DNA of 56,222 nucleotides from an uncultured bacterium (GCA_903824595.1 CAIJXH010000008.1:1-56222); one strand, 5' to 3'; numbered from the stretch's first letter, positions 15,542 through 39,413 are shown. Numbers and translations are program-made. Notes: generated from the sequence alone by a model not told the origin.

Positions 15542-16906
15542 ATGACTCAACTACCCAATCTCAATAATCACGAACTTTGGCAGAATGCGCTTGTTCAAAT
15601 AGAGCTCGGCACGTCGGAAGCATCGTTTCGGACGTGGTTTCGCAATACCGATATCACGACACGCGACAGTGCTGGTACCGTACACATCGCCGTTCCCTCA
15701 AAAATCGTAAAGGAGTGGTTGATGGACAAACATCATAAACTTATCTTGAAAGCGCTCCGTGGTCTTGATCCGAGTATTCGGGCAGCTGAATACATCATTC
15801 ATCGCACCGCAACACCGCCCATCAAACAAAACCGACAACCTTCAACGGAAAACACGGCACTCGATCTCAATGGACTCTACATAGATAAACGCGACAACCT
15901 CAACCCTCGCTATACATTCGATACGTTTGTGGTGGGGCCGTTCAATGAGCTAGCACACGCGGCTACACAAGTGGTGTTGCAACGCCCCGGTGGCGCATAC
16001 AATCCGTTGTTTATATACGGACTCACGGGTAGGGGAAAGACGCACCTCATTCAAGCGGTTGGCAATTATTTCAAAAAAAATCATGGCAACAAAAAAGTGT
16101 TTTATGTAAGCGCCGAACGTTTTGCCGTCGATTACATGAATGCCGTCCGTATTGGACGTGCCAATAATTTCAAAGACCAATATCGCCAATACGACGTTCT
16201 TATTATGGATGATGTGCAATTTATGGCTAAAACGGAACGCACACAAGATGAATTGTTTCACCTTTTCAATGCCATGCACGACAACAACAAACAAATCGTG
16301 TTTTCGTCCGATCAACATCCTGCAATGCTTCCCGGGTTTGAGGATCGTCTTCGCGGACGATTTTCTGCGGGCATGATTGCGGAAATACCAGAACCAGATA
16401 TCGAATCACGCAACGCGATTATCAAGGCAAAGCTTGAGAGTCATGGTTTTTCACTCCCCAGTGACGTGATGTCCTATATTGCTGAAAATGTCCGCGGAAA
16501 TATACGAGAACTTGAAGGTATTCTCAACATGATCGTCTGTAAATCTCAACTCAAGGGTAAGGGAGTAACGCAAACCGACGTACGAGCCCTCATAAAACAC
16601 AATATAAAGCCAAACAAAGGGGTTTCTATCGAGGAAATCGTACGACGTATCGCGCAATATTACGATATTCCAGAAAAAAATATTTACGAAAAAACACGCA
16701 AAAAAGAGGTTGTGAAACCTCGACAAATCATTATGTATGTACTTCGTGAAGAATTTGGTGTCTCCTACCCATCCATTGGGGAAAAACTAGGGGGGCGCGA
16801 CCACACAACCGTGATTCATTCATGCGAAAAAATAAAACAGGAGATCAAATCAAACCTATCACTCGAACAAGAACTTGACCACATCCGCACCCTTGTTCAT
16901 GTATAG
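15542..16906 (+). CDS. dnaA: chromosomal replication initiator DnaA
   Basis: Walker A GLTGRGKTHL, sensor motifs, and the C-terminal DNA-binding domain (GGRDHTTVIHSCEKI). Confidence 0.97.
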   Translation: MTQLPNLNNHELWQNALVQIELGTSEASFRTWFRNTDITTRDSAGTVHIAVPSKIVKEWLMDKHHKLILKALRGLDPSIRAAEYIIHRTATPPIKQNRQPSTENTALDLNGLYIDKRDNLNPRYTFDTFVVGPFNELAHAATQVVLQRPGGAYNPLFIYGLTGRGKTHLIQAVGNYFKKNHGNKKVFYVSAERFAVDYMNAVRIGRANNFKDQYRQYDVLIMDDVQFMAKTERTQDELFHLFNAMHDNNKQIVFSSDQHPAMLPGFEDRLRGRFSAGMIAEIPEPDIESRNAIIKAKLESHGFSLPSDVMSYIAENVRGNIRELEGILNMIVCKSQLKGKGVTQTDVRALIKHNIKPNKGVSIEEIVRRIAQYYDIPEKNIYEKTRKKEVVKPRQIIMYVLREEFGVSYPSIGEKLGGRDHTTVIHSCEKIKQEIKSNLSLEQELDHIRTLVHV

Positions 16907-17123: not shown

Positions 17124-18224
17124 ATGAAATTCTCAACAACAAAAGAAAAATTATTGGGTGCCGTACTCATTGCTGAACGTATTGTCGGAAAGAAAGAATC
17201 ACTCCCTGTTTTGTCATGTGTTCTTTTGGATGCCAACACATCAGTGGCGATACGAGCTACCAATCTTGAGGCGGGTGTGGATGTGGTGGTGCCGTGTACG
17301 GTTGAGGAAAAGGGTGTTGCGGCGGTTGCGGCAAATATTCTCTCTCAAACACTTCGTTCGATCAGTGGTGATAAAGTGTCGATTCACACCGAGGATGGAA
17401 ATGTGGTGATAGAATCGAAAGGAACACGCACACTCATAAAAGCGCTTCCTCACGATGAGTTTCCTGCTTTTTCAAAAGAAGATTCGGGTGTGGGTATAAA
17501 AATCACCAAAAACGCTCTTTTGCGTGGTATTCAGAGTGTGTTGTATGCAGCGTCTCCCTCAATGATTCGTCCGGAGCTTGGAAGTGTATTTATTTCCATA
17601 AAAGGTACAGAGGTGGTGTGTGTGGCGACAGACTCGTTCCGTCTTGCAGAGCGAACGATTACCAGCGAGATGGGGCACCAGAAAGAAGGTGTTGAAATGC
17701 TGGTACCGCTCAAACATGCGTCAGAACTTGTTCATGTACTTGAGCGTGCTGGAAACGAAGTGGAGTGTGTGGTGAGTGAATCGCAGTTGGTGGTAACGGC
17801 GGGAGGGGTAAAATTTGTGTCGCGTGTGGTGGATGGTAATTTTCCGAACTACAAAGACGTGATTCCCAAAACATTCACAACAGAAGCGACGATTCTCAAA
17901 AACGACCTCGCCGAAATGCTCCGTAAGGCGCGCGTGTTCTCTGGTAATGATCAGCATATCGGACTCCATATCTACCCACAGAAAAAAATATTCACCGCGA
18001 CCGCACAAAGCGCCAATGTGGGGGAGATGTCAGACTCGGTCGATGCGGCTATGTCGGGTGAGGATCTTGATATGAATTTCCACATCGGTTATTTGGGTGA
18101 TTGTCTTTCGAGTATTGAATCGGATTCCGTCACGCTTTATTTTGCCGGCATCGGTCGCCCACTCGTCATTCGCGGCGTCTCCGACCCCGCATTCACGTAT
18201 TTAGTGATGCCGTTGAATCGGTAG
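17124..18224 (+). CDS. dnaN: DNA polymerase III beta sliding clamp
   Basis: Position after dnaA. Typical N-terminus (MKFSTTKEKLL...) and C-terminus (LVMPL). Confidence 0.95.
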   Translation: MKFSTTKEKLLGAVLIAERIVGKKESLPVLSCVLLDANTSVAIRATNLEAGVDVVVPCTVEEKGVAAVAANILSQTLRSISGDKVSIHTEDGNVVIESKGTRTLIKALPHDEFPAFSKEDSGVGIKITKNALLRGIQSVLYAASPSMIRPELGSVFISIKGTEVVCVATDSFRLAERTITSEMGHQKEGVEMLVPLKHASELVHVLERAGNEVECVVSESQLVVTAGGVKFVSRVVDGNFPNYKDVIPKTFTTEATILKNDLAEMLRKARVFSGNDQHIGLHIYPQKKIFTATAQSANVGEMSDSVDAAMSGEDLDMNFHIGYLGDCLSSIESDSVTLYFAGIGRPLVIRGVSDPAFTYLVMPLNR

Positions 18225-22320: not shown

Positions 22321-23826
22321 ATGGAAAAATTTAAAAGGGGGGGCAAGGAGATGCGAATGCTGGTTACTCAAGATTGCAATTATAATTGCGTCATGTGTCA
22401 TGGTGAGGGGTTGCAAGAAGAAAAAGAGGCAACGCTTTCGCCTGATGATTTTGCTTTTATTTTTCGTGTTGGAAAAGAGCGACTCGGTATGGACACCACG
22501 ACTCTCACTGGTGGCGAGCCTTTGTTTAGAAAAGATATTGTAGAAATAGCAAAGAATCTTCACGAAGAGGGTGCAAAAATAACATTGACTACAAATGGGC
22601 GTTTACTGACACGGAGGATGGAGGTAGGTAAGTACTTAGATAGGATCAATGTTTCTGTACACACTATGAACGAGGAAAAGTATGAAGATCTTGTTCAGGT
22701 GAAAAATAGCTTTCATTCAGCGATGCATAATCTGAGGGCTTTTAGGCAAGCGTATCCAGAGGTGTCGATTGTTTTAAACACCACTTGTATTCGCGGATTT
22801 AATTCTGAACCTGATGATTTTAAGTCGCTGGTCGAGTTTGCGAAATCAATACGGGCATCTATCAAATTGATAGAATTATTTCCGCCAGACCGCACTGACG
22901 TAGTAAGTCTCGAAGAGGTGACCACTATACTTACTGCCCTGGGTTTTGTACCAACGGAGACAGAACTGCGCAAAAGAAAATTAAGTGATGGTCAAACAAC
23001 TGTCTCATTGACCCGGATATTTTGTGCGGAAGCCGTTAATAGTGGTGATCCTGCCGCTTTTTGTAATCAACAGAATGATGTGTTCATCTCTCCAGATGGA
23101 TTTGCAAAGCCGTGTCGCTCAGATAGTATGGAGGTGGACTTGAATTCGGCATTACGTAGTAGAAATGAGGACGAGATGGAAAGGCTTATCAAACACGCAT
23201 TTGCTGAAACAGGCCGCAGATGTGTTTACGATAGGAATAACCTATCGGAAATGGAGGCGCCCGAGACATTGACCGAAAAGTACGGCGAGCGTGCGTATGT
23301 GTTGGAAAAACTGGAAGCGTATCGAGGTGTTGACGCAGAAGAAGATGTGATGCGTTTAGATGTGGTTCAGTTTGTTAAGGATCACGAGAACTGTTTCGAT
23401 AGGAGTCTATCGACCGGACATGTCACTGGCTCGGCGCTTGTTGTTGATCCGGGTTTCAATCAAACCTTGCTTACCCACCATATGAAGCTGGATCGATGGT
23501 TTCAATTTGGCGGACATTCCGATGGTGACTGGAACACATTGCGCGTTGCGATGCGAGAGGCGCTGGAGGAGTCTGGGTTGAAGTCACTTCGTCCATATTC
23601 GGGTAACATCTTTAGTATTGATGTTCACCCGATTCCCGAGCGAGGAGATGAACCGGAGCACAAGCATTATGATGTTCGGTTTTTACTCATCGGAGACCCA
23701 CGCGAACCCTCAACGACTAGCAGTGAATCAAAAGAGTTGCGCTGGGTGAATCTTGATGATGCGGCACGTTTGAATCCAAGTGATGCAATGCGCAGAATGG
23801 TTGAAAAGGCGAAACGTCTCAAATAA
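22321..23826 (+). CDS. MoaA-like radical-SAM domain fused to a C-terminal Nudix hydrolase domain
   Basis: N-terminal half: CNYNCVMC (CX3CX2C), TGGEPLF, TLTTNG, NVSVHT and a distal Cys triad (FCAEAV...AFCNQQNDVFISPDGFAKPC). C-terminal half: Nudix box GGHSDGDWNTLRVAMREALEESGL. Alternative starts at 22351 or 22357 lie behind AAGGAG. Confidence 0.85.
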   Translation: MEKFKRGGKEMRMLVTQDCNYNCVMCHGEGLQEEKEATLSPDDFAFIFRVGKERLGMDTTTLTGGEPLFRKDIVEIAKNLHEEGAKITLTTNGRLLTRRMEVGKYLDRINVSVHTMNEEKYEDLVQVKNSFHSAMHNLRAFRQAYPEVSIVLNTTCIRGFNSEPDDFKSLVEFAKSIRASIKLIELFPPDRTDVVSLEEVTTILTALGFVPTETELRKRKLSDGQTTVSLTRIFCAEAVNSGDPAAFCNQQNDVFISPDGFAKPCRSDSMEVDLNSALRSRNEDEMERLIKHAFAETGRRCVYDRNNLSEMEAPETLTEKYGERAYVLEKLEAYRGVDAEEDVMRLDVVQFVKDHENCFDRSLSTGHVTGSALVVDPGFNQTLLTHHMKLDRWFQFGGHSDGDWNTLRVAMREALEESGLKSLRPYSGNIFSIDVHPIPERGDEPEHKHYDVRFLLIGDPREPSTTSSESKELRWVNLDDAARLNPSDAMRRMVEKAKRLK

Positions 23827-26539: not shown

Positions 26540-29299
26540 ATGGCAATCAATTGGCGCGACATTCAGGAGAGGGCGACGATTTTCGCTCACAAGTATGCCG
26601 ATGCCAAAGATGAGGATCGTGATGCGAAGCCTTTTTGGAAAGACTTGCTTGAACTCTACGGTGTGGACCCGCGTCAAATCGGAGCGTTTGAGGAGCGCGT
26701 ACGTATTCACGGCAGGCCTGGGGTGGGGAAGATAGACTACTTCGCGCCGCATAAGTTTATCATCGAGCATAAGTCGCGCGGCAAGGATCTTGGTGTTGCG
26801 TATCGACAAGCGATGGACTATTTCGACGCGCTTTCGAAGACAGATCGTCCACGCTACATTATCGTTTCTGATTTTGCGCGTTTCCATGTGTACGATCTTG
26901 AAGCTTCCGAAGAAAATCGTTTCGTTGAATTCTCTCTTGAAGAACTTCCGAAGCGCGTGCGCCAATTCGCATTCTTTGCCGACGAAGATGTGCGCGTGTA
27001 CAAACCCGAAGAGCCAATCGACGTGAAAGCCGTTCGCTCTATCGGTAGGCTCCATGATGCGCTCCGTTCTTCCAACTATTCCACGGCGCACCTCTCGCCG
27101 CTTCTCACGCGTCTCGTCTTCCTGTTTTTCGCCGACGACACCGGTATTTTTGAGAACAACGCTATTCGCGAGTATCTCGATGCAAACACCAATCCCGACG
27201 GCTCTGACATTGGCGACAAGCTCAATGGCATATTCCAGGTACTTGATACGCCACAAGAAATGCGACAGACGACGCTCCATCCAGTGCTCGCGAATCTACC
27301 ATATGTGAACGGGGGATTGTTTGCCGCTCCGCTTCCCGTGGTCTTTGTGTCACGCGAAGTGCGCGAGACTATCCTTGCATGCGCCGCCTTCGACTGGTCG
27401 CGTGTGTCTCCTGCCATCTTCGGTTCGATGTTTCAGTCGGTGATGAACGAAAAAGAGCGACACGATCTCGGTGCACACTACACGAGCGAAACCAACATTC
27501 TCAAGGTTATCAACGGCCTTTTTCTCGAAGAACTACGCACCGAGCTCGAAGCCGCAAAGACCAACCGCGAAAAACTCCTTGCGCTCCAAGAACGATTGGC
27601 CAAAATAACCCTGCTTGATCCTGCGTGTGGTTGCGGCAACTTCCTCGTGGTTGCGTATCGCGAATTGCGCAAGGTTGAGAATGATGTCATTGCGCGACTT
27701 TACAACAAGACGAGTACCACTAAAGTGGAGGCGGGTCACACGGTGTTGCCGCTCGGTGTCAATCTCAAAACTATCTCCAAAATGTCGGTCGAGCGCATGT
27801 ACGGCATCGAAATCGATTCGTTCCCCGCCGAAGTCGCTAAACTCTCGCTCTGGCTCGTCGATCACCTAATGAACGTCGAGCTCGGCAAGCTCTTCGGTCA
27901 GCCACTCACCAAGCTCCCGCTTACCGAAGCGCCGCACATCGTTCAAGGCAATGCTCTGCGCCTCGATTGGGAATCGGTCGTGCCCAAAGATAAACTCACC
28001 TACATTCTTGGAAACCCACCGTTTCTCGGTTCGCGGGTGATGAGTCTAGAACAAAAGGGAGATATTGAAACAATATTTGGGGATACGCGCGGTGTAGGAA
28101 ATTTAGACTATGTTGCTGGTTGGTATTTAAAAGCAGGAGACTATATACAAAACACTCGCATAACATGTGCGTTTGTTTCTACCAACAGTATCACGCAAGG
28201 CGAACAAGTTAATGTTTTGTGGAAATTTCTCATCGAACAACGTGGTGTACATATCCGCTTTGCGCACCGTACGTTCAAATGGAGCAATGAAGCGACAGGG
28301 AAAGCCGCCGTGTTTTGCGTAATTGTTGGTTTTGGACTGAGTGAAATTAAACAACCTAGAATATATGAATATGCTGATATCGGCGGCGAGGCAAAAGAAG
28401 TTAAAACACAGCACATCAATCCTTACATGGTCGATGCTCCCGATGTTTTTATAGAAAGCAGAAACAAACCATTGAATGGTAATGTGCCCCGGATGAGTGT
28501 TGGTAACTTACCAATTGATGGCGGCATCTATTTGTTCACGACCGAGGGAAAAGCAGAGTTTCTGAAACGAGAGCCACAATCGAAGAAATATTTCCGAAGG
28601 TGGATCGGCTCCGACGAATTTTTGAATGGCTGGGAGCGTTGGTGTCTGTGGCTCGGAGATGCGAGTCCGAGCGATCTTAGAGATATGCCAGAAATAATGA
28701 GGCGTATTGATGCGGTAAAACAGTTTCGTCTATCCAGCAAGAGACCTGCTACCAGAAAATTAGCTGAAACACCAACGCATTTCCATCTTGAAAATATGCC
28801 GACCGGAAACTATTTAGTCGTACCAAAAGTCTCATCAGAGCGTCGTCGCTACATTCCCATTGGTTTTGAACATCCTTCAACGTTTGCTAGCGATCTTGTT
28901 TTTATCGTGCCGGAAGCAACTCTCTATCACTTCGGCGTTCTCGAAAGTGAAATGCATATGGCGTGGATGCGGGTGATCGCAGGTCGTTTGAAATCGGACT
29001 ATCGGTACTCAAATACCATCGTCTACAACAACTTTCCATGGTCGGAGGACTCAACCGACGAGCAGAAAAGGGAAGTGGAAACGGCGGCACAGGCGGTACT
29101 CGACGCGCGCGCGGCTCACGCGGGCGCGACACTTGCCGATCTCTACGATCCGCTCACCATGCCCAAGGATTTGCTCGATGCTCACCACCACCTCGACCGC
29201 GCCGTAGATGCCTGCTACGGCAAACGCAAATTCAAGAACGAGCCGGAGCGGCTTGAGTACTTGTTCGAGAAGTATAAAGAATTGATAGCCAAGAAATAA
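26540..29299 (+). CDS. MmeI-like type IIL restriction-modification enzyme (nuclease + N6-adenine methyltransferase + TRD in one chain)
   Basis: 919 aa. N-terminus MAINWRDIQERA...AKPFWKDLLELYGV...DYFAPHKFIIEHKSRGKDL (D...EXK). Methyltransferase motifs LDPACGCGNFL and GNPPFLG. Confidence 0.88.
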   Translation: MAINWRDIQERATIFAHKYADAKDEDRDAKPFWKDLLELYGVDPRQIGAFEERVRIHGRPGVGKIDYFAPHKFIIEHKSRGKDLGVAYRQAMDYFDALSKTDRPRYIIVSDFARFHVYDLEASEENRFVEFSLEELPKRVRQFAFFADEDVRVYKPEEPIDVKAVRSIGRLHDALRSSNYSTAHLSPLLTRLVFLFFADDTGIFENNAIREYLDANTNPDGSDIGDKLNGIFQVLDTPQEMRQTTLHPVLANLPYVNGGLFAAPLPVVFVSREVRETILACAAFDWSRVSPAIFGSMFQSVMNEKERHDLGAHYTSETNILKVINGLFLEELRTELEAAKTNREKLLALQERLAKITLLDPACGCGNFLVVAYRELRKVENDVIARLYNKTSTTKVEAGHTVLPLGVNLKTISKMSVERMYGIEIDSFPAEVAKLSLWLVDHLMNVELGKLFGQPLTKLPLTEAPHIVQGNALRLDWESVVPKDKLTYILGNPPFLGSRVMSLEQKGDIETIFGDTRGVGNLDYVAGWYLKAGDYIQNTRITCAFVSTNSITQGEQVNVLWKFLIEQRGVHIRFAHRTFKWSNEATGKAAVFCVIVGFGLSEIKQPRIYEYADIGGEAKEVKTQHINPYMVDAPDVFIESRNKPLNGNVPRMSVGNLPIDGGIYLFTTEGKAEFLKREPQSKKYFRRWIGSDEFLNGWERWCLWLGDASPSDLRDMPEIMRRIDAVKQFRLSSKRPATRKLAETPTHFHLENMPTGNYLVVPKVSSERRRYIPIGFEHPSTFASDLVFIVPEATLYHFGVLESEMHMAWMRVIAGRLKSDYRYSNTIVYNNFPWSEDSTDEQKREVETAAQAVLDARAAHAGATLADLYDPLTMPKDLLDAHHHLDRAVDACYGKRKFKNEPERLEYLFEKYKELIAKK

Positions 29300-29306
29300 A
29301 TTCAAA

Positions 29307-29324: not shown

Positions 29325-29331
29325 TCGTGTG

Positions 29332-29472: not shown

Positions 29473-29567
29473 ACGATTTGTTTATCCAGTAATTCTCCGG
29501 AGCGCACGCCAGATTGAACATTATTGTATGGTGAGGATTTATCCATGTCAATATTGTGGACAATTTG

Positions 29568-29595
29568 TTGACAAGAATCCTGACGTATGGATAAT
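29568..29595 (+). promoter_or_regulatory. promoter of the HTH-Panacea gene
   Basis: TTGACA, a 16-nt spacer, then GATAAT. The ATG at 29602 is 6 nt downstream, which suggests a leaderless start at MSQSTLL.... Confidence 0.5.
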
Positions 29596-30369
29596 AAAAA
29601 CATGTCTCAATCTACATTGCTTCGGGAGTTGCGGGAGGGGGAGGGGTTGGCGCAGGAAGCGGTCGCCAAGGAGCTTGGTGTGTCGCGCCCGACCTATATC
29701 GCGCTCGAACAAGGGAAGCGGGAGCTTACGCTTGGCGAGGCGCAGAGTGTGGCGCGGATGTACGGCGTCCCGCTCGATGTGATCGCGTCGGGCAAGAAGC
29801 CGGCGGAAATAGCGCTTCCCAAAGGCAAGGAGAAAAAAGAGAAGCCGTACGTGCGTATTAGTGTGCCGCAGGAGCGGATCGACAAATTCAAGCAGGTGCT
29901 TTTGTATCTTTTGGGGAAGACGGCGGGCAAGCCCAATGTGGGCGAGACGGTGCTGTACAAGCTCCTCTACTTTATCGATTTTGACTACTACGAAAAGTAC
30001 GGGGAACAGCTCATGGGGTTGCGGTATATTCGCAACCATTTTGGTCCGTCGCCGCGTGCGTTTGGGGCGGTTGTGCGTGAGATGGAGAAGGCGAACGAGA
30101 TAGAAAAAGTGAAAAGCACCTATTTTGCGCACGACCAAAAGAAATATTTGCCGCACAAGGTTGCCGACTTGTCTGTTCTTTCGGGGCGAGAAGTGGAAAT
30201 GATTGATGATGTGCTCTCGCGGTATGGCGACAAAAACGCGTCGGAACTTTCCGCGCTCACACACGAAGATATGCCGTGGATGGCGGCAAAGCAAGGCCAA
30301 GATATCCGGTATGAGCATGTGTTCTATCGCTCCGACAAGCTATCGGTTGGTACCTATGACGAGCTATAA
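29587..30369 (+). CDS. XRE-HTH fused to a DUF4065 (Panacea/SocA-like) antitoxin domain
   Basis: The HTH is LAQEAVAKELGVSRPTYIALEQGKREL. The Panacea-type core is VLYKLLYFIDFDYYEKYGEQLMGLRYIRNHFGPSP. The alternative start is 29602. Confidence 0.8.
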   Translation: MDNKNMSQSTLLRELREGEGLAQEAVAKELGVSRPTYIALEQGKRELTLGEAQSVARMYGVPLDVIASGKKPAEIALPKGKEKKEKPYVRISVPQERIDKFKQVLLYLLGKTAGKPNVGETVLYKLLYFIDFDYYEKYGEQLMGLRYIRNHFGPSPRAFGAVVREMEKANEIEKVKSTYFAHDQKKYLPHKVADLSVLSGREVEMIDDVLSRYGDKNASELSALTHEDMPWMAAKQGQDIRYEHVFYRSDKLSVGTYDEL

Positions 30370-30381
30370 ACGCGACCGACT

Positions 30382-30726
30382 ATGGAATTTGGCGAGACAT
30401 CCGAGTTTGCGCACGATTTGAAGCGGTTGAGAAAGAAATATCTGTCACTCGACGAAGATGTGACTGCTCTGCGAGAGGCGATCGAAGTGTCTCCGAGTGG
30501 AGATGGGGCAAAACATTGCAACTGCATGCGTCGTGCGGGAGATGTCATCGTCTACAAAATCCGTCTCGCATGTCGGTACTTACAGGCATCGCGCATGCGC
30601 GTGATATACGCGCATCATGTGAAAGAGCGAAAAGTCGTATTCATCGAGCTGTATTACAAAGGCGAACATGTGCACGAGGATGGTGGCAGGATTACGGCGT
30701 ACCTGAAATCGAATATGCTACAGTAA
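30382..30726 (+). CDS. RelE/ParE-superfamily toxin
   Basis: FAHDLKRLRKKY...VYKIRLA...RMRVIYAHHVKERKVVFIELYYKGE follows the RelE/HigB-like pattern. It starts 12 nt after the antitoxin stop. Confidence 0.7.
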   Translation: MEFGETSEFAHDLKRLRKKYLSLDEDVTALREAIEVSPSGDGAKHCNCMRRAGDVIVYKIRLACRYLQASRMRVIYAHHVKERKVVFIELYYKGEHVHEDGGRITAYLKSNMLQ

Positions 30727-30730
30727 TTCC

Positions 30731-31576
30731 ATGTCCATCCCCGACAAATACTCCGCCGTGTGGGTGTCGCATTCGTCGATGGGGGATTTTTTGAAGTGTC
30801 CAAGGGCGTACTTTTTGCACAATGTCTATAAGAATCCGAAGACGGGCAGGAAGATGACGCTCGTCGCGCCGCCGCTTTCGCTAGGGGCTGCGGTGCATAC
30901 GACGCTCGAAGATTTGAAACACCTTCCCGTGGAAGAGCGCATGAAGCGCGATTTGTTGGCGGATTTTGAGAAAGCGTGGGAGGCGGTGTCGGGCAAAAAG
31001 GGAGGATTTACGAGCGAGGAAGAGGAGGCAGCGACCAAGGCGCGCGGCAAGGCGATGGTCGAGCGTGTGGTGCAAAATCCCGGACCAATCGCGCGAAAGA
31101 CGGTCAAGCTTCCCGCCGCACACAACAACATGCCGCCCAATTTCTACCTCTCCGAAGAAGACAACATTATCCTCTGCGGACTCATCGACTGGATCGAATA
31201 TGTGGAAGCCGACGACAGTATCCGCGTCTTGGATTTCAAGACAGGCAAGCATGAAGAGTCGGGTGATTCGCTCCAATTGCCGATCTATCTTCTGCTTTTG
31301 AATGCGCTCCAGAGGCGCCGCGTCAGCGGCGCCTCGTACTGGTATTTGGAAAAAGACGACGCGCCGATTGTGGTGGATTTGCCTGATGCGGCGGAAGCGC
31401 GTGAAGCAGTGCTCGCGGTGGCGAGGCGCGTGAAAGAGGCGCGGGAGAAAAAAGAGTTTGCGTGTCCGCGCGGCGAGCAGCAGTGTTTCGCGTGTCGCCC
31501 GTATGAAAAAATCTTGGCAGACGAAGCGGAATACATCGGCGTGGGCGGGTACGGACAGGATGTATACCTCGTGTAA
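30731..31576 (+). CDS. PD-(D/E)XK (RecB/Cas4-like) nuclease with four-Cys cluster
   Basis: N-terminal CPRAYF, core IDWIEY...VLDFKTGK, QLPIYLLL, and C-terminal CPRGEQQCFAC. Confidence 0.8.
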   Translation: MSIPDKYSAVWVSHSSMGDFLKCPRAYFLHNVYKNPKTGRKMTLVAPPLSLGAAVHTTLEDLKHLPVEERMKRDLLADFEKAWEAVSGKKGGFTSEEEEAATKARGKAMVERVVQNPGPIARKTVKLPAAHNNMPPNFYLSEEDNIILCGLIDWIEYVEADDSIRVLDFKTGKHEESGDSLQLPIYLLLLNALQRRRVSGASYWYLEKDDAPIVVDLPDAAEAREAVLAVARRVKEAREKKEFACPRGEQQCFACRPYEKILADEAEYIGVGGYGQDVYLV

Positions 31577-31616
31577 CAAAAAGGAGATTGGCGGTGCCAA
31601 TCTCCCGTAATTATGG

Positions 31617-31817: not shown

Positions 31818-31881
31818 CTTTCACACGTCCATAATTCACTGGTGAACTTGTCTCACTGCATTGTACCATTGTGTTTTGCTG

Positions 31882-32412
31882 CTATTCCGCATTTGTATAC
31901 ACTTCCTCCACGTCGTCGTGCGCGTCGAGCTGCTCCAAAATCTCCATGAGACGTGTGTGGTCGGAGGGCGAGAGTGGTACTGTCGTGGCGGGCTCGTAGC
32001 CGTCGTGCGTTTTGGTGAACGCCCACAGCGCGCTTCCTTGTGCAGCGAGCGCGAGACCATTTTCGGTAAGTAGATGCTTGATTTCTTGCGCCGTGCGATT
32101 GCGACTGTCTGTCAGTGTCTCGATGATGATCGCTGCGCCGCCTGGACCGTACGTCTCATAGGTAATCGCTTCCATTGTCGCGGCGTCTGCTGAAATTCCC
32201 TTAGCGACCGCACGCTCGATGTTCTCCTTCGGCATGTTGGTTTTCTTGGCGGTCTCGATGATTGCGCGGAGGCCCGGCAGTGTCACGTCGCCATTGGCTT
32301 TCTTGCTTTCCACGGCGATGCGTTTGCCGAGTTTGCCCCATACTTGGCTTTTGGCACCGTCATTCGCACCCTTCTGCCTCTTTATCTGCGACCATTTATT
32401 ATGTCCTCCCAT
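31882..32412 (-). CDS. yebC: YebC/PmpR-family transcriptional regulator
   Basis: MGGHNKWSQIKRQKGANDGAKS... is the canonical YebC N-terminus. The start is set at 32412, not at the track ORF start of 32475. Confidence 0.88.
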   Translation of the reverse strand: MGGHNKWSQIKRQKGANDGAKSQVWGKLGKRIAVESKKANGDVTLPGLRAIIETAKKTNMPKENIERAVAKGISADAATMEAITYETYGPGGAAIIIETLTDSRNRTAQEIKHLLTENGLALAAQGSALWAFTKTHDGYEPATTVPLSPSDHTRLMEILEQLDAHDDVEEVYTNAE

Positions 32413-32448
32413 GCGGCGCATTCTATAAGAAATCGGGCGAAAAGGAAA

Positions 32449-32467
32449 CGGCCGCTCGTGGCGGCCG
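32449..32467 (-). terminator. intrinsic terminator after the kinase gene
   Basis: CGGCCGC-TCGTG-GCGGCCG, followed on the minus strand by a U-rich tract. It lies just upstream of the TATAGAAT hexamer in front of yebC. Confidence 0.6.
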
Positions 32468-32471
32468 CTTT

Positions 32472-33017
32472 TCACAAGGCAAGAATGTCGGAGGGAACTG
32501 GATCACATGGGTTGATGTGGCGAACGACATCGAACACACCCTCTTCTTGGAGATGGAGCGCCGCGAATAATCCGTGGATGCGTGTGCATGTCCCAATGCG
32601 TTGCTCACGCGCATATGCAGTGTAAATCGGTTTCTTGCACTCGATCGGCTTCCGATCGAAACTCCACGCGATATTGGTATCGAGTGGGGTCACAAAGTGC
32701 CAAGCTGCAAGACAGTCGACGCGCATTTCCCGCACCTTTTGCGCGATGCGCACGCGTTCTTCTGGAGGTCCGTTCCATGCGTCTAGAATAATGGTGACGT
32801 CGGGATTCTCAAGGCGAGCCGCAAGCTTCCGCCATAGAATATCCCAGGCGGCCTCATGGGTACCTGAATAGGCATCGGCGTAGATGCTCCCACATAGTTC
32901 CATCAGAATGGCATCTCGACTTACAATGTGCACGTCAGGGTGCGCGCGCACCACACTCTGGGCAAACGTAGATTTTCCCGCACACTGCGGACCCACTGTC
33001 AGGATGACTCTTCTCAT
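32472..33017 (-). CDS. P-loop kinase, AAA_33 / polynucleotide-kinase-like
   Basis: Walker A GPQCAGKST and SRD about 20 residues later, as in T4 Pnk-type and zeta-like kinases. Confidence 0.75.
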   Translation of the reverse strand: MRRVILTVGPQCAGKSTFAQSVVRAHPDVHIVSRDAILMELCGSIYADAYSGTHEAAWDILWRKLAARLENPDVTIILDAWNGPPEERVRIAQKVREMRVDCLAAWHFVTPLDTNIAWSFDRKPIECKKPIYTAYAREQRIGTCTRIHGLFAALHLQEEGVFDVVRHINPCDPVPSDILAL

Positions 33018-33165
33018 TTCTCCACACTCCTTTCATGTTTTCCGTCGAGCACAGTAGCACGCCGCTAGCATAGATTCAACGATGCGCCGAAGCGACGCTC
33101 AATTCCTTGTGCGCTCTGCGATTTAGTGCTTTATAGGCATCTACAGGTCACCATAAGTAGGGGAT

Positions 33166-34407
33166 TTAGAAATTCCCAATCTGGTCGGCGTCAATAGGCG
33201 AGCGCAGAGCGAGTCGTGGTGCGAGTGCGGCGAGTCGGCTGTCGGCATCGTCGGGAATGTGCGGCAGGTCGGCAAGCATGAGCCCGGGGTCGTTGCAACT
33301 TTCCAGCGCGATTTGCGCGATGCGGCGTATTTCTTTTTCATACGCGGGCTCACTCTTGAGGAATGTGGTCTTGCGGCGGATTTGCGCATCGGTGCATCCG
33401 GGCTGGTATGCCGGATCGCCCGTGCATGAAATGAGTCGCGCGACGCCGAGCATGATAAGTGCGGTCTCTCGCGGCGGTCGCGCAATAATCTCGCGCACGT
33501 CGGTGAGTGCGAGCCAGTCGAGAATATGGTGCGCGGATTCGTGAAGCGTAATGTCTGCGCGTATGGTCGTGTGCGTTTTCTGTATGTTCTGATGTGTCTT
33601 GATGAGCGCGTCGAGCACAGAAAGCGGCTCGATCATTTCGTGAAGATTGTCGTCGGGAGTGTTGGTGGTCAGGCGACTGGTGTTCAGGTTCATTGTTTGT
33701 TCGACGATGGTTTGAAACATGCGTGAGTTGCGGTGGTTGTTGGGCATGATGCTGATCGTGTGATTCTCGCACGCGGCGAGCGCGCGCACGGCGGGCTGGA
33801 TGTCTTCCATGGTGACGATCTTCGGGCGCTTCGTTTTTCGCGCACGGACGCAATCAAAAAGTTTGATAAGTGCGTCGTCGGGTTTGCAGGTGGGGTCGGA
33901 GAGAAACGCGACAAGTGTCCGCGCGTCTTTCGCCGTGCATCCTATTTTTTCCAAATGGCGCGCCAATGTCTTTTCCGACACCTCCGCGAGATATTCCAGC
34001 TTTTCATCGACAGCGTTGAAATAGGCATCAAGATCAATCGTCGCATCTCCGTTTTCGTTAGTCGTTATTGTCTTCGATTTCTCCTCGCGTATCGCCTCAA
34101 TAGGCGACATGCCGAGATCTTTGTGCGGAAAATAATTCCACACCGCGCCGAGGATTTGCAGGTTGGTGGTGAGAATGTTGTTGGGCAGTTGTTTATGGAT
34201 GAGTACATCACATACGTCATTCTGAAATTTCTTGAACGGATAGTCCTTGCGCGAATTCACGCCGACGTGTACGACGCGAATCGCCGCCTCAAAAGAAAGC
34301 GTGCTTGGGAAATCGTACTCCCGCGCCATGGTCTCGTAGTCGCGGCGTATCGCGGTGCGCAGCTCTTCAATCGGGGTGGTCATGTCGGGGTCTTGGTATT
34401 TGTACAT
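33166..34407 (-). CDS. hypothetical 413-aa protein
   Basis: Long uninterrupted ORF carrying the WNYFPHKDLGMSPIE motif, which is shared with ORF 55531..55827. Confidence 0.75.
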   Translation of the reverse strand: MYKYQDPDMTTPIEELRTAIRRDYETMAREYDFPSTLSFEAAIRVVHVGVNSRKDYPFKKFQNDVCDVLIHKQLPNNILTTNLQILGAVWNYFPHKDLGMSPIEAIREEKSKTITTNENGDATIDLDAYFNAVDEKLEYLAEVSEKTLARHLEKIGCTAKDARTLVAFLSDPTCKPDDALIKLFDCVRARKTKRPKIVTMEDIQPAVRALAACENHTISIMPNNHRNSRMFQTIVEQTMNLNTSRLTTNTPDDNLHEMIEPLSVLDALIKTHQNIQKTHTTIRADITLHESAHHILDWLALTDVREIIARPPRETALIMLGVARLISCTGDPAYQPGCTDAQIRRKTTFLKSEPAYEKEIRRIAQIALESCNDPGLMLADLPHIPDDADSRLAALAPRLALRSPIDADQIGNF

Positions 34408-34482
34408 AGTGGCATTTTAGTGTGTATGTGGTGTCTTCTCAAATCGTTTGCGGTAGGTGGGCAGGTTTGGTACGCTACGTAT

Positions 34483-34773
34483 ATGGAGCATCTTTTGGTG
34501 AATCTGCCGGTGAGTATTGCGAAGCAAGGAAGACGGTTTGTCGCATACTCTCCCGCGCTTGATATTTCGACGAGCGGCAAAAGCGAAACCGACGCAAAGC
34601 GAATGTTCGGAGAACTGGCGCGGCTTTTCATTGAAGAATTGAAAGAAGCTGGGACGCTCGATCAAGTATTGACGGAACTGGGTTGGCGCAAAATAACAAC
34701 TCGTCCGTGTGCTTCACAGTGGACGCCGCCGCGCGCGTACAGCGTGCCGGTGCGGATGCCAGTGGCGGCATAG
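34483..34773 (+). CDS. HicB-like (UPF0150) antitoxin-family protein
   Basis: LPVSIAKQGRRFVAYSPALDISTSGKSETDAKRMFGELARLFIEELKEAGTLDQVL follows the HicB-fold pattern. Only the last 96 codons of track ORF 33733..34773 are plausible. Confidence 0.6.
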   Translation: MEHLLVNLPVSIAKQGRRFVAYSPALDISTSGKSETDAKRMFGELARLFIEELKEAGTLDQVLTELGWRKITTRPCASQWTPPRAYSVPVRMPVAA

Positions 34774-34868
34774 TTATATTGTCGCCTGGCATCATCACCA
34801 ACAATCTCCGCACGCTCGGCATTTCCCGTGAGGAGTATTTGGATTTTTTGAAGCGGTAGTGATTATCG

Positions 34869-35219
34869 CTACGACTGTTTCACTCCCACTCCCGCAAACC
34901 GCGTGTCGATCCTCTCAATCTTTCTCTTCAGTGCGTCGTTCACATCCACACCGAGGCGATGGGCGAGGATGAGGGTGGTGATGATGACGTCGGCGACTTC
35001 GAGTGCGACGGCGTCTTTGGTGTCGGTAGAAGTTTTCTCGGCGCGTTGGAATCCATAGAGCGCGATGATGGCATCAGCGAGTTCGCCGGTTTCTTCGGAG
35101 AGTTTGGCGACTTGCCAAAAGACACGCTCTCGCCCATTTGTTTTGATGAGATTTATGTGTTCAAGTTTTGCATCTTATTGTGCGATCCATTGCACGAGAT
35201 CATCAGAAATCGGTTTCAT
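34869..35219 (-). pseudogene. MazG-like NTP pyrophosphohydrolase with in-frame TAA at codon 15
   Basis: Manual translation gives MKPISDDLVQWIAQ*DAKLEH...KLSEETGELADAI...ALEVADVIITTLILAHRLGVDV.... The stop is at 35175-35177. Confidence 0.65.
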
Positions 35220-35229
35220 AGCAGCAGCG

Positions 35230-35261
35230 TTATCTGCGACCATTTATTATGTCCTCCCATG
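35230..35261 (-). repeat. 32-bp perfect duplicate of the yebC 5' end
   Basis: TTATCTGCGACCATTTATTATGTCCTCCCATG is identical at 32382-32413 and 35230-35261. This copy reads MGGHNKWSQITLLL*, and its TGA overlaps the mazG-like ATG. Confidence 0.9.
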
Positions 35262-35335
35262 GGGGTATTCTAGTGCGGAGGCGAGAATTACTCAAATATT
35301 TCAATTGTGCACAAAGATGTTACAGTGTTGCTTCA

Positions 35336-36799
35336 ATGGCAAAAAATGACAGCATTGTATCTTTTGAAGATGTGTCCTTTGAGTACGGGTACACGAAGTC
35401 AATCCTCGATGAGGTGAATTTTTCTATTCGTCGCGGGTCCAAGACGACGCTGATGGGACAAAACGGCGCGGGCAAGAGCACCATCTTTCAGCTCATCATC
35501 GATGCGCTCGAACCAGAGTCTGGTGCTATTCACAAAGAACACGCTCTCACAATCGCGCTTTCTAAGCAGGTGATACCGCGCGATCAGCTCGATCTCACGG
35601 TGCGCGATTTCTTCCAAACGTGTTTCGAAAAAAAGATATACGACATTGATCCTAGGATCGACGAAGTGCTTGAAATAGTGCACCTTCGCGGACACGAAAA
35701 GATTCACGATCGTGTGGTGCGATCGTTTTCGGGCGGACAACAGGCACGGCTCCTTCTTGCCTCGGCACTCATCCAAAACCCCGATTTGTTGCTTCTCGAC
35801 GAGCCGACCAACAACCTCGACAAAGCAGGCATTGCACACCTCACGGATTTTCTCGTCCACTATCCGAAAACCGTTATGGTGATTTCGCACGATGCGGAGT
35901 TTCTCAACGCCTTCAGCGACGGCGTTTTGTACCTCGATGTACATACGCGCAAGGTGGAGCAATACGCGGGCAACTATCATGATGTGGTGGAGCAAATTTC
36001 AGCACGCATCGAGAAGGAAAACATGAAGAACGCGCAGCTCGCCAAAGACATTCAAGCCAACAAGGACAAGGCAAATTTCTTTGCGCAAAAGGGCGGCGGC
36101 ATGCGCATGGTAGCCAAACGAATGCGTCTCAAAGCCGAGGCAATGGAGGAAGAAAAAGTCGACGTTCGCCGCGAAGACAAAACCATCCGACCGTTCACCA
36201 TTCCCGCGCAGGAGTGCCTCGGAAGCGTCGTGGAAATTTCGTCGTTCAAGGTGGTGGGGAAGAATCACAAGCCTGTCGTAAAGAAGGCGGCGCTTGTACT
36301 CAAGCGCCGCACCCATCTCCTTTTGCGCGGCCCCAATGGCATCGGCAAAACGACGCTACTCGAATCCATCGCCCGCAACAAAGCAGAAGGTGCGGTAATC
36401 GCGCCCGACGTGAAGGTGGGCTATTACCGCCAGGATTTTTCGACACTCGATTTCAGTGCGACCGTACACCAGTCGCTCATGCGCGCATCAATCCATCGCC
36501 GCGAAGAGGAGTTTGTGCGCAGTGTCGCCGCCGGATTCCTCATCACGGGCGACATGATGCAGACGCTGGTCGGCAGCTTGTCGGAAGGACAGAAAGGACT
36601 CGTTGCCTTCGCGTGTCTCGTCTTGGAACGCCCCGGTCTCCTCATTCTCGACGAGCCGACCAACCACATCAATTTCCGCCATCTTCCCGTCATCGCAAAA
36701 GCGCTCGACCAGTACGAAGGTGCCATGATCCTCGTCAGTCACGTCCCCGATTTTGTGAAGCAAATCAGGATAGATGAGGTGCTGGATCTCGAAAAATAA
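35336..36799 (+). CDS. ABC-F family ATPase (two ABC domains, no TM domain)
   Basis: Two Walker A sites (GQNGAGKST, GPNGIGKTT) and two signature motifs (SGGQQ, SEGQK). The start is set at MAKNDSIV. Confidence 0.9.
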   Translation: MAKNDSIVSFEDVSFEYGYTKSILDEVNFSIRRGSKTTLMGQNGAGKSTIFQLIIDALEPESGAIHKEHALTIALSKQVIPRDQLDLTVRDFFQTCFEKKIYDIDPRIDEVLEIVHLRGHEKIHDRVVRSFSGGQQARLLLASALIQNPDLLLLDEPTNNLDKAGIAHLTDFLVHYPKTVMVISHDAEFLNAFSDGVLYLDVHTRKVEQYAGNYHDVVEQISARIEKENMKNAQLAKDIQANKDKANFFAQKGGGMRMVAKRMRLKAEAMEEEKVDVRREDKTIRPFTIPAQECLGSVVEISSFKVVGKNHKPVVKKAALVLKRRTHLLLRGPNGIGKTTLLESIARNKAEGAVIAPDVKVGYYRQDFSTLDFSATVHQSLMRASIHRREEEFVRSVAAGFLITGDMMQTLVGSLSEGQKGLVAFACLVLERPGLLILDEPTNHINFRHLPVIAKALDQYEGAMILVSHVPDFVKQIRIDEVLDLEK

Positions 36800-36845: not shown

Positions 36846-37685
36846 TTATTTTCCGGAGCCCGTATTTCCAAGTGCGTCGGCGTCGATGTAGGCAACGAAT
36901 AGCGACTCGTCGACGTTTGGTCTTGTGATGCTTGCAATGAACGGGGGTTTGAGTGTGTAAATAGTCAGAAATGATCGTACTCCGCGAATGGTGGCAGTTG
37001 CGGTCACAACGTCAGTTTGTGCGCCGCGCTCGTTCACCTTGAAACTAACTCGTTGCAGTGCTTGCGCGATACTGTTGTTACCCAGATGCATGCCGATAAT
37101 CCATGTTATATCGGCATCTCGTTCGAGGCTGATCATGGGGATGATTGCGGTCACAAGTTGTCCGACATGAGGCGGTGCATGTTGCATTGCGTGTGCCGCA
37201 TCGCGTAGCGCGAATATGTTTGTGTCGCGCATCTCAGTGTGCCAGAACGCATAGATGTCACCATTGGTTGCTTTCATGGTGACAACGGGCTCGGGAGAGT
37301 TTGGCATATCCCTGAACTCAAGCCCATGTTCCGTTTGTACCCGAAACGCAGGTCTCCCATCGGATTCCGTGACCTGTCCTTGTACGCGCCACGATGCTGC
37401 TAGTGTACAAATGGACACAGCGCCCACATGTGTGCCGTCGTTGTGCCATGGGCGCAATCGTACCGATGAGTTTGCTTTTGCGAGTTTCTCGTTCAAATTG
37501 CGTGCGTTATATGACGCAAATCCTTGGCATTCCGGTATGCGCCCAAGGTTTCGCGTGATACTTGGTAGTATCGTGAGTAATTGTTGCTGAATAGCGGTAC
37601 CGCCATTCCAATTACCATCGCCAACCAGTGTCGATACGGCAAGCAATGCTTGCACGATACCAATCAGACTTCCCACGATGCTCAT
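36846..37685 (-). CDS. short serpin-like protein with N-terminal signal/anchor
   Basis: IPMISLERDADI...QRVSFKVNERGAQTDVVTATATIRG...KPPFIASI...SLFVAYI resembles the serpin s5A/reactive-centre-loop/s1C region. At 279 aa it is about 100 aa shorter than typical serpins. Confidence 0.55.
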   Translation of the reverse strand: MSIVGSLIGIVQALLAVSTLVGDGNWNGGTAIQQQLLTILPSITRNLGRIPECQGFASYNARNLNEKLAKANSSVRLRPWHNDGTHVGAVSICTLAASWRVQGQVTESDGRPAFRVQTEHGLEFRDMPNSPEPVVTMKATNGDIYAFWHTEMRDTNIFALRDAAHAMQHAPPHVGQLVTAIIPMISLERDADITWIIGMHLGNNSIAQALQRVSFKVNERGAQTDVVTATATIRGVRSFLTIYTLKPPFIASITRPNVDESLFVAYIDADALGNTGSGK

Positions 37686-37794
37686 GATTCACCTCTCCTC
37701 TTCGTGCATTTGAACTATGTTCCGATGATGTGTATACCACGTGATGCGGCATAAAACAATCGGCGTATAATCCGTGTTCTGCTATACTCTCGTC

Positions 37795-38268
37795 ATGCAA
37801 ACAACACTTCATACGAATAAGGGCGACATTACGATCGAGCTTTCGGAAGCGACGCCTCATACAGTGGCGAATTTTGTGAAGCTTGCCAAGAGTGGATTTT
37901 ACGACGGCACGAAATTCCACCGCGTGATAAAAGATTTCATGATCCAAGGAGGCGATCCGCTCACGAAAGACGACGCCATGGTGGCGCGTTGGGGGACGGG
38001 CGGTCCTGGCTACTCGTTTGCCGATGAAATAGCATCGACGAATCGCAACGACATCGGCACCATCTCGATGGCGAATGCCGGACCGAATACCAACGGCAGT
38101 CAATTTTTCATCAACGTCGCGTCAAACAATTTTCTCGATACCAAACACACGGTCTTTGGCAACGTTGTTGCGGGCATGGAAGTCGTTGCAGCGATCGAAA
38201 ACGTCGAGACTAATGCGTCAGATCGTCCGTTGGAGGCGGTCGTGATCGAGCGGGTCGAGGTTTGTTAG
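37795..38268 (+). CDS. ppiB: cyclophilin-type peptidyl-prolyl cis-trans isomerase
   Basis: FHRVIKDFMIQGGDP and SMANAGPNTNGSQFFI. Confidence 0.93.
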   Translation: MQTTLHTNKGDITIELSEATPHTVANFVKLAKSGFYDGTKFHRVIKDFMIQGGDPLTKDDAMVARWGTGGPGYSFADEIASTNRNDIGTISMANAGPNTNGSQFFINVASNNFLDTKHTVFGNVVAGMEVVAAIENVETNASDRPLEAVVIERVEVC

Positions 38269-38270
38269 TT

Positions 38271-39281
38271 TCATAACATTGACCCCTGTGCACGTGGCGC
38301 GTCGACACCAATGTGTTCGTAGCCCTTGGGGGTGACGGTGCGACCGCGTGGTGTGCGCTCGATGAGTCCGAGTTGGAGCAAATAGGGCTCGTTGACCTCC
38401 TCGATCGTCGCGTCTTCCTCGGAGAGTGAGGCGGCGATGGTTTTGAGCCCCACCGGGCCGCCGCGGAATTTCTCGACGATGAGTGAAAGGATGTCGCGGT
38501 CGGTCTGGTTGAGTCCGCCCTCGTCAATCTCAAGAAGTGCGAGTGCTTTCCTGACAGTTTTGAGATCGAGCGTGGTTTCATTGACCTCGGCAAAGTCGCG
38601 AGCGCGTTTGAGAAGGTAGTTGGCGGTACGCGGCGTGGCGCGTGAGCGTTTGCTGATTTCGTGCACGGATTCCTTGTCGGCTTCAATGTTGAGAATCTTT
38701 GCCGAACGCGAGAGTATCTCGGCGATTTCTGGGTCGGTGTAATAATTGAGACGGAACGTGCCGCCGGAAAAGCGCGAACGCAGCGGCGCGGAGAGCATGG
38801 AGATGCGGGTGGTTGCAGCGATGAGGGTGAATGGGGGCAAGTCGAGCTGTACCGTGCGTGCCGACGGACCCTTGCCGATTACGATGTCCAACACACCCGA
38901 CTCCATCGCGGGGTAGAGAATTTCTTCGATGGTGCGATTGAGGCGATGGATTTCGTCGATGAAGAGCACGTCGCCGGGGGAGAGGTTGGTAAGAATGGCG
39001 GCAAGGTCGCCCACGCGCTCGATCGCAGGACCGGAGGTGGATCGCAGCGACGCACCGATTTCTTTTGCCATCAAGTGCGCCAGCGTCGTCTTGCCCAAGC
39101 CCGGCGGGCCGTAGAGAAGGACGTGTTCGGGCTGCTGCTGTCGACCCTTGGCGGCAGTGAGCAAAATACGCAGGTTTTCCTTGATGGTTTCTTGACCCAC
39201 GTACTCTTTCCACGAATCTGGGCGGAGCGCCTGATCGAGTGAGCGCGGGCTTTTTTCTATGCTGTCTTTTGGTGATGTCAT
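38271..39281 (-). CDS. ruvB: Holliday junction branch migration helicase RuvB
   Basis: LRPDSWKEYVGQE, GPPGLGKTT, DEIHRL and the C-terminal winged helix. Confidence 0.95.
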   Translation of the reverse strand: MTSPKDSIEKSPRSLDQALRPDSWKEYVGQETIKENLRILLTAAKGRQQQPEHVLLYGPPGLGKTTLAHLMAKEIGASLRSTSGPAIERVGDLAAILTNLSPGDVLFIDEIHRLNRTIEEILYPAMESGVLDIVIGKGPSARTVQLDLPPFTLIAATTRISMLSAPLRSRFSGGTFRLNYYTDPEIAEILSRSAKILNIEADKESVHEISKRSRATPRTANYLLKRARDFAEVNETTLDLKTVRKALALLEIDEGGLNQTDRDILSLIVEKFRGGPVGLKTIAASLSEEDATIEEVNEPYLLQLGLIERTPRGRTVTPKGYEHIGVDAPRAQGSML

Positions 39282-39413
39282 GGTGATGTAGCCTGTTGGC
39301 GACCATTGGTGGACGGCAACGGGGCGCAAAAACGCTTGACTTTTATTTTCTATATGCTACAGTACTAGGAGATGGTGGAGATTCCTCCACTTTTTTCATA
39401 GCACATCTCTCAT

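Follow-up and report, generated by a model that had tools for sequence, protein, structure and literature searches.

A duplicated yebC start in a Kaiserbacteria genome as the probable scar of a single illegitimate recombination joint

The repeats found at tRNA genes and genomic islands are att sites made by integrases, and they recur across genomes; the att core of SXT is about 17 bp long. Tandem duplication junctions can form by illegitimate recombination. Elements of the SXT/R391 family insert themselves in prfC at its 5' end and supply the gene with a substitute promoter (PMC2791158). Homology-facilitated illegitimate recombination (HFIR) is an established route that combines one homologous anchor with an illegitimate joint of 3-10 bp; it is known from experiments in Acinetobacter, Streptococcus and Pseudomonas, in which recipient DNA was usually deleted (PMC6382021, which summarises de Vries & Wackernagel 2002, Prudhomme 2002 and Meier & Wackernagel 2003). 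Here we consider a locus that resembles each of these cases in part. In a 56,222-nucleotide stretch of DNA from an uncultured bacterium (GCA_903824595.1, CAIJXH010000008.1; the window), the first nucleotides of the conserved gene yebC are present twice, and the two copies bracket a segment that contains a mazG-like gene, a 413-aa open reading frame (ORF) and a P-loop kinase gene. We conclude that the repeat is probably the scar, since fixed, of a single illegitimate (non-site-specific) recombination joint within a hypervariable interval, and the old yebC promoter looks to have been left driving a dead gene.

The repeat, a 32-mer of sequence TTATCTGCGACCATTTATTATGTCCTCCCATG, occurs exactly twice in the window and on one strand, at 32382-32413 and 35230-35261, with 2848 nt between corresponding positions. 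On the minus strand it reads C+ATGGGAGGACATAATAAATGGTCGCAGATAA, that is, one nucleotide ahead of the ATG followed by nucleotides 1-31 of yebC, and comparison across related species identifies it as the conserved HNKWSQI coding start of that gene. The perfect identity described in the initial annotation is therefore confirmed, and no further copy turns up at unrelated positions: none exists in the window with up to three mismatches (none is expected, from 100 shuffles), and none was found in scans of genome, metagenome and viral collections. A second copy of a species' own yebC start was seen in 0 of 80 related species, and the identical 31 nt of the yebC start are shared by no other sampled species. 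The distal copy opens a 14-codon stub, yebC', the TGA of which shares bases with the start codon of the mazG-like gene (ATGA); translation and sequence agree on this mini-ORF, which had likewise been proposed at the outset. Between the repeat and the mazG ATG stands a 10-nt tail, CGCTGCTGCT, at 35220-35229.

Which parts of this arrangement are ancestral can be judged from the closest relative found, whose YebC is 91% identical in amino acid and 79% in nucleotide sequence. Its 6389-bp contig (ERZ1426832) has the order ruvB (3' end)-mazG (116 aa)-[259 aa, 141 aa, PemK-like toxin]-yebC-[178 aa, methyltransferase, PD-(D/E)XK], and the 259-aa, 141-aa and PemK-like genes all lie on the opposite strand. 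When the 53 nt ahead of the intact yebC of this relative are aligned with the window, they match the distal flank and not the proximal one. The predicted promoter in that distal flank, which we call P, agrees with the relative's yebC promoter at 30 of the 37 nt upstream of the ATG (85% over 66 nt overall), and the two have an identical -35 box (TTGAGT), a 17-nt spacer and an identical -10 box (TAGAAT, at 35267-35272 in the window). In addition, a low-coverage variant in two sequencing runs, X1 and X4, has such a promoter directly on a yebC that runs past +31. Because both the relative's intact yebC and this variant carry P directly in front, the distal P is, by orthology, the ancestral yebC promoter, and the earlier proposal that this promoter was stranded upstream together with the first 10 codons of the gene holds. 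A degenerate P-yebC pattern gave no match when scanned against the metagenome collection.

The same comparison changes the status of the bracketed segment, which had been described as a 2.8-kb insert. In four short contigs of the relative, a single base separates the ruvB stop from the mazG ATG (TGA-C-ATG), and the 3' 245 nt of mazG are 82.9% identical between the two organisms, as compared with 82.3% for ruvB, 78.7% for yebC and about 79% for PD-(D/E)XK. Since mazG directly follows ruvB in the relative and has diverged to the same degree as the backbone genes, it is, by position and divergence, a resident ancestral neighbour of ruvB and not imported cargo; the first gene of the supposed insert is thus resident DNA. 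The tetranucleotide composition of the bracket (r = 0.83; segment A, 0.85; null 0.76 +/- 0.10) is also native.

Comparison of the two loci suggests a genus-level ancestor with the order ruvB-mazG-[variable cassette]-P-yebC. With R standing for the repeat and P' for the promoter predicted ahead of the intact yebC, the window reads ruvB-[PPIase, orf279, ABC-F]-P-R-CGCTGCTGCT-mazG(pseudo)-[96-aa ORF, orf413, kinase, terminator]-P'-R-yebC. Both P and mazG appear to have come down by vertical inheritance, and their order is reversed with respect to the relative. The joint lies where yebC +31 meets a position 10 nt ahead of the mazG ATG, and one joint of this kind accounts for both the reversal of P and mazG and the duplication. 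It would strand P and 31 nt of yebC in front of mazG, and leave the full-length yebC behind another cassette, one that ends in P'.

We envisage two routes to such a joint. In the first, two versions of the locus would have been fused, one with the order ruvB-[PPIase, orf279, ABC-F]-P-yebC and the other ruvB-mazG-[cassette]-P'-yebC; related DNA would have been taken up, with yebC serving as the homologous anchor and an illegitimate joint closing the other end, as in HFIR. This route leads one to expect a second locus version with a ruvB tail ending in ...ACGCTGCTGCTATGA. In the second, a unit reaching from mazG to yebC +31 would have been duplicated in tandem, and the cassette in each copy subsequently replaced.

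The tail offers some clues to the origin of the joint. In the stub frame it contributes to ACG CTG CTG CTA TGA, which weakly resembles the relative's ruvB end, CCG CTC CTT TGA, and an 8-mer, TATGAAAC, is found both at the ruvB stop (38269-38276, ...ATGTTATGAAAC) and at the stub-mazG junction (35213-35220, ...TGCTATGAAAC). The shared 8-mer could be left over from an overlap that ruvB and mazG once had, or could be fortuitous. These similarities fit an origin of the tail at a ruvB/mazG boundary and are too short for significance. We also considered the 8-mer as a target duplication flanking the PPIase-orf279-ABC-F segment and rejected this, as there are no inverted repeats and no transposase; it stays an unexplained clue.

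Several observations weigh against an illegitimate joint as the origin of the repeat. Neither type of parental allele was found in the same species, and we infer the direction and the route. Both routes require about three events in total. Simple tandem duplication within the genome is a poor fit, because roughly half of the tail positions disagree with the ruvB tail in the window itself, yet the two repeat copies match at 32 of 32; for the same reason allele fusion appears to fit better. Allele fusion in turn demands that the first 32 nt of the donor yebC were identical or were converted, and, as noted above, even 31 of them are shared with no sampled species. The edge of identity is sharp at one nucleotide before the ATG and a replacement promoter is well placed behind it, which is also how an element that integrates at gene 5' ends would look. 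Finally, the four runs that hold the locus (pond metagenomes) are represented by k=31 contigs, which are broken at any 32-bp repeat, and in such contigs occupied, empty and circular forms look alike.

Among the other explanations, Campbell-type integration survives best, although we regard it as unlikely. A circle carrying the cassette and a yebC start, which could for example have looped out of a related chromosome, would enter by a single RecA-dependent crossover over about 32 bp, close to the minimal length for RecA-dependent exchange. Such a crossover yields direct repeats of the shared segment around the insert, just as seen, and makes a recombinase unnecessary; the native composition of the bracket would suit a donor from the same lineage. 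The homology on the circle would nevertheless have to stop exactly at -1 and +31, when a circle derived from a related yebC locus should share more of yebC, and no circular or plasmid form appears in any collection scanned. It would also stay unexplained why the far end of the segment is occupied by mazG, a gene normally fused to the ruvB stop.

A quite improbable alternative is that the 32-mer is an att core, as the initial annotation suggested, and the bracket an integrase-less integrative element or its decayed remnant, comparable to SXT/R391 at prfC and mobilised in trans. Perfect direct repeats (32/32) do bound a discrete segment, identity begins exactly 1 nt ahead of the ATG, and at its right end the segment has a terminator plus a promoter, correctly spaced, by which yebC would stay expressed. 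An uninterrupted P-yebC site exists in the sister species, and a XerC/D-type tyrosine recombinase, the sole Phage_integrase-family protein in the window, is encoded 26 kb from the bracket (5725..6642). Against this stands the absence of any recombinase, excisionase or transposase domain from the ORFs between 20.6 and 39.3 kb (Pfam, PADLOC, PHROGs and NCBIfam), in addition to the resident first gene, the native composition, the 0/80 recurrence and the failure to find the 32-mer in any of the three collections. Exact-protein look-ups of YebC, ABC-F, the kinase, the 413-aa ORF and RuvB, used to find alleles from the same species, yielded no contig with an empty site or another arrangement, all being the same or too short; the comparison for empty sites that had been recommended gives the uninterrupted site of the sister species. 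The cargo families are nearly unique to the lineage, and those of the 413-aa ORF and mazG are so rare that a spreading cassette can be discounted. No sign of an active excision system was seen. The broader proposition that the yebC start is a bona fide Kaiserbacteria attachment site, at which integrase-less cassettes are moved in trans (for example by the lone Xer-type enzyme), each bringing a leaderless promoter and 10 yebC codons, is very improbable; if true, it would represent a new minimal cassette-exchange system in bacteria of the Candidate Phyla Radiation (CPR), one in which the target gene is kept expressed.

We rejected, as having hardly any chance of being correct, the idea that the repeat is a transposase target-site duplication or a dif-like Xer site of the kind used by integrative mobile elements exploiting Xer (IMEX). 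Direct repeats around a segment that lacks its own recombinase are found in IMEX elements, and the Xer-type gene mentioned above could be enlisted here too. There are no terminal inverted repeats at the ends of the bracket and no transposase, however, the transposon target duplications known to us are far shorter than 32 bp, and the sequence is simply the conserved coding start of yebC. The replication origin, as marked by dnaA (15542..16906) and dnaN (17124..18224), is about 15 kb away, whereas dif sites lie at the terminus. Alignment by hand of the 32-mer with the E. coli dif consensus gives 11/28 matches, a lead rather than a test.

The assembled sequence itself is well supported. ENA BUCK21-1 scaffold_709, with three single-nucleotide differences in 12 kb, contains both copies with all four junctions, as does a MEGAHIT k141 contig that is 100% identical; a contig of a metagenome-assembled genome from NCBI (GCA_903933615.1) covers the distal junction. 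At least two independent assemblies therefore span both copies and both junctions. Pond metagenomes that contain this genome include runs X1-X3 and the ENA BUCK21-1 samples SAMEA6872749 and SAMEA6872750. Read depth is even over flanks and bracket (7.7-8.9x in X1), which means that the bracket is carried by most cells, and no more than that. An assembly artefact at the conserved 32-mer, whether through chimeric joining or through collapse of a strain mixture, can be dismissed because both copies and their junctions recur as one sequence in contigs of different assemblers with k up to 141 over level depth, even though short-k graphs break right at the repeat and the 32-nt unitig has a depth of 11.8x where twice 8.7x would be expected, a deviation within sampling noise at such coverage.

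Returning to the illegitimate joint, we asked what it would have done to expression at the locus. The old and new yebC starts were said to share similar -10 boxes. Both boxes exist, but the distal spacing is N6 and not the N5 first reported, and their similarity reflects the architecture of gene starts throughout this genome. A TAnnnT hexamer 5-9 nt before the first in-frame ATG is found at 20 of 48 long frames as opposed to 7 of 228 internal ATGs, and the pattern TAnA[AC]T plus 4-10 nt plus ATG or GTG opens an ORF of at least 90 aa 25 times, against twice in a reversed-sequence control. Shine-Dalgarno (SD)-like motifs precede 9 of 48 gene starts. A -10 box 5-9 nt before the ATG thus appears, from these counts, to be the usual gene start in this organism; examples of such leaderless-type starts lie at 3739, 4562, 5725, 9343, 17124, 20650, 21162, 34407, 43505 and 45948. 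Many related Paceibacterota yebC genes have the same -10/ATG layout, and a literature search that combined leaderless with Patescibacteria found no paper treating such starts. Since the layout is general in the genome (20/48 vs 7/228), the similar boxes are no evidence of a shared origin, and P, P' and the promoter of the 413-aa ORF are predicted to be three ordinary leaderless-type starts. No homologue of P' was found upstream of yebC at the roughly 80 related loci compared.

The terminator and second promoter that had been placed ahead of the intact yebC both find support, the former by a hairpin at 32449-32467 with a folding energy of -21.8 kcal/mol (z = -4.0, RNA fold) followed by UUUCCUUUU, the latter by its sequence. 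We predict that yebC is now transcribed from P'. The strong ancestral P is predicted to give a leaderless transcript of the stub, coupled through ATGA to the dead mazG, and the 413-aa ORF and kinase to be transcribed from their own promoter. The idea that the displaced promoter would drive the cargo is not supported: P couples only the stub and the mazG pseudogene, beyond which lie ORFs on the opposite strand. Because the 413-aa ORF has its own promoter, the kinase an SD-like site and mazG a stop at Q15, P would drive no functional cargo. The gene order given initially (mazG-like gene, 413-aa ORF, kinase) is correct as to the genes present and overlooked the two plus-strand ORFs that intervene between mazG and the 413-aa ORF, because of which the bracket is not one co-directional operon. 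The 32-bp direct repeat could also permit rare RecA-mediated deletion of the bracket.

Table 1. Coordinates of the features discussed, in window positions.
Feature	Position	Strand	Details
Radical-SAM + NUDIX fusion	22321..23826		ruvC-yebC interval
MmeI-type IIG restriction-modification enzyme	26540..29299		ruvC-yebC interval
HTH-SocA/Panacea antitoxin-like gene + 114-aa partner	29587..30726		ruvC-yebC interval
PD-(D/E)XK/Cas4-like nuclease	30731..31576		ruvC-yebC interval
yebC, intact	31882..32412	-	176 aa; Pfam TACO1/YebC PF20772 + PF01709; NCBIfam YebC/PmpR
Proximal repeat copy	32382..32413	-	start of intact yebC; exact match
P' (predicted promoter)	32420..32427	-	-10 TATAGAAT-N7-ATG of intact yebC; weak -35
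Intrinsic terminator (predicted)	32437..32475	-	3' of kinase gene; GC stem core 32449-32467, T-rich tract
P-loop kinase, AAA_33	32472..33017	-	PF13671 6e-12; PHROG 505; TIGR04075 weak
413-aa ORF	33166..34407	-	very rare all-alpha family
413-aa ORF promoter (predicted)	34442..34414	-	TTGAGA-17-TAAAAT-N6-ATG
Two overlapping plus-strand ORFs	34483..34773 (96 aa) + 34683..34859 (58 aa)	+	convergent with mazG
mazG-like pseudogene	34869..35219	-	Pfam MazG-like + MazG; in-frame TAA 35175-35177
yebC' stub ORF	35216..35260	-	MGGHNKWSQITLLL, then stop; 14 codons; translation
Distal repeat copy	35230..35261	-	start of yebC' stub; exact match
P (predicted; ancestral yebC promoter by orthology)	35295..35267	-	TTGAGT-17-TAGAAT-N6-ATG; heads stub; promoter scan
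ABC-F ATPase	35336..36799	+	Pfam ABC_tran x2; divergent from P, 75-nt intergenic region
279-aa ORF	36846..37685	-	gene call; no Pfam match
PPIase	37774..38268	+	PF00160 (precomputed Pfam)
ruvB	38271..39329	-	ancestral upstream neighbour of yebC, also of mazG in closest relative

The features of the locus are collected in Table 1. For YebC, more than 3000 homologues reach E <= 1e-40; of the 120 listed, nearly all share the 176-aa length of the window protein. This short form is typical of Paceibacterota; it fits the Pfam model of the second and third domains in two pieces, as if part of a protein of about 240 aa were gone. Codon 15 of mazG is TAA in the window and Q in the relative's intact 116-aa protein. 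The TAA is common to all assemblies of the species and the remainder of the gene is intact, and on its reading frame mazG, a gene for a MazG-like pyrophosphohydrolase, is a fresh pseudogene made by a single nonsense codon (Q15 to TAA). Its family is near-confined to the two organisms, with three matches at E <= 1e-10 among 5.8 billion proteins.

The kinase resembles the N-terminal domain of polynucleotide kinase. The 413-aa ORF is one of a very rare family (17 representatives among 1.84 billion) marked by a conserved WNYFPHxDLGxSPxE motif and a C-terminal PSPF. Its AlphaFold2 model is confident and all-alpha (pLDDT, the predicted local distance difference test, 86), with no fold match in the PDB (best E = 0.3, TM <= 0.26), and searches of four hidden Markov model libraries (Pfam, PADLOC, PHROG and NCBIfam) and of the genome collection gave no match and no relatives, respectively. 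No kinase partner was found on the one other contig checked that carries a homologue of the 413-aa ORF, a short one. The plus-strand ORFs and their read-through fusion match nothing in the same four libraries; an identity as HicA/HicB, suggested by eye, was dropped for want of Pfam support even with the fusion.

The ABC-F gene, the 279-aa ORF and the PPIase gene lie between ruvB and the yebC promoter in this lineage only, and are absent near yebC in 80 species. Before the rearrangement, yebC and the ABC-F gene would have been divergent neighbours with a common 75-nt promoter region (35262-35335). Roles in the rescue of stalled ribosomes have been ascribed to both families. The 80 other species do not keep the two genes adjacent, and the adjacency may be coincidence. 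Upstream of ruvB we noted a 26-nt inverted repeat (39413-39438 and 39530-39555; 85% complementary, with arms 91 nt apart) that has no Rfam match, and no Rfam family was found elsewhere in the region.

YebC relatives place the window organism in Candidatus Kaiserbacteria of the Paceibacterota (Patescibacteria, CPR), the best species representative having a YebC 80% identical to that of the window. We compared the ruvB-yebC interval across 68 related species with both genes on the DNA fetched, in every one of which the two genes share a strand and ruvB is the upstream one. Twenty-two species have a gap of at most 100 nt, 8 one of 100-500 nt and 38 one of more than 500 nt, with a maximum of 7.4 kb; at 5858 nt that of the window is the second largest. 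Cargo sampled in this gap elsewhere includes Fic/DOC, a type ISP restriction enzyme, DoxX, a methyltransferase and a peptidoglycan-binding protein. The other flank behaves in a similar way: a relative with 84% YebC identity has the order ruvB-yebC-ruvC-PBP, whereas in the window ruvC and PBP lie 10.7 kb past yebC and accessory genes fill positions 21200-31880. Judged by these gene orders, yebC is a conserved gene with insertion hot spots on both flanks. A low-GC patch at 24400-25750 (36% as against 50% in the backbone; tetranucleotide r = 0.34 vs null 0.76) contains ORFs of 226 and 188 aa without a Pfam match, and is the sole clearly foreign-looking DNA in the region.

The rearrangement at yebC is probably a one-off structural scar, ordinary in kind. 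It nonetheless provides a clean, datable case of how accessory cassettes gather around ruvB-yebC-ruvC in tiny CPR genomes, with the conserved gene not silenced. It also suggests a reason for this tolerance: in an organism whose genes usually start with a bare -10 box just ahead of the ATG, new promoters cost little, a replacement would be easily supplied, and insertions at gene 5' ends would be tolerable. The more useful by-products of the analysis are the genome-wide leaderless architecture and the hot spots that flank yebC. With their toxin, restriction and unassigned genes, the ruvB-yebC and yebC-ruvC intervals are possible landmarks in the search for defence and toxin-antitoxin genes in Patescibacteria, and one such candidate set consists of the rare 413-aa ORF and the kinase gene beside it.

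How, then, does the locus compare with the described systems? As at island hot spots, including the repeats at tRNA 3' ends and the cis-mobilisable elements left by integrative and conjugative elements (ICEs), a second copy of part of a conserved gene marks the distant edge of accessory DNA, and different lineages carry different cargo at the locus. Unlike island att repeats, this one is a 5' coding fragment, with no integrase and no recurrence. The likeness to SXT/R391 is closer, in that the inserted DNA sits in the 5' end of a conserved, translation-related gene that remains intact because it gains another promoter and start, the insert lies between short repeats that are nearly identical, and the original 5' end is stranded upstream. 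SXT, however, is an ICE of about 100 kb with a tyrosine integrase and Xis and many independent occurrences, whereas the bracket at yebC measures 2.8 kb, encodes no recombinase, begins with a resident gene and is known from one lineage only.

A third comparison is with the joints of tandem duplications, in which the end of a unit (here yebC +31) is joined to the start of a unit (here just upstream of mazG), an arrangement that would reverse the order of P and mazG with respect to the sister species. A plain tandem duplication differs from the present case in that the copies here share only 32 bp and the tail mismatches the present ruvB end, so that extensive replacement would be needed. With HFIR the differences concern the outcome, a 32-bp duplication where the experimental cases usually show deletion of recipient DNA, and the donor, microhomology and competence, which are hypothetical here. 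The resemblance lies in the form of the event itself: as in HFIR during natural transformation, one end would be anchored in homologous yebC and the other joined non-homologously, in a unique event that needs no dedicated recombinase.

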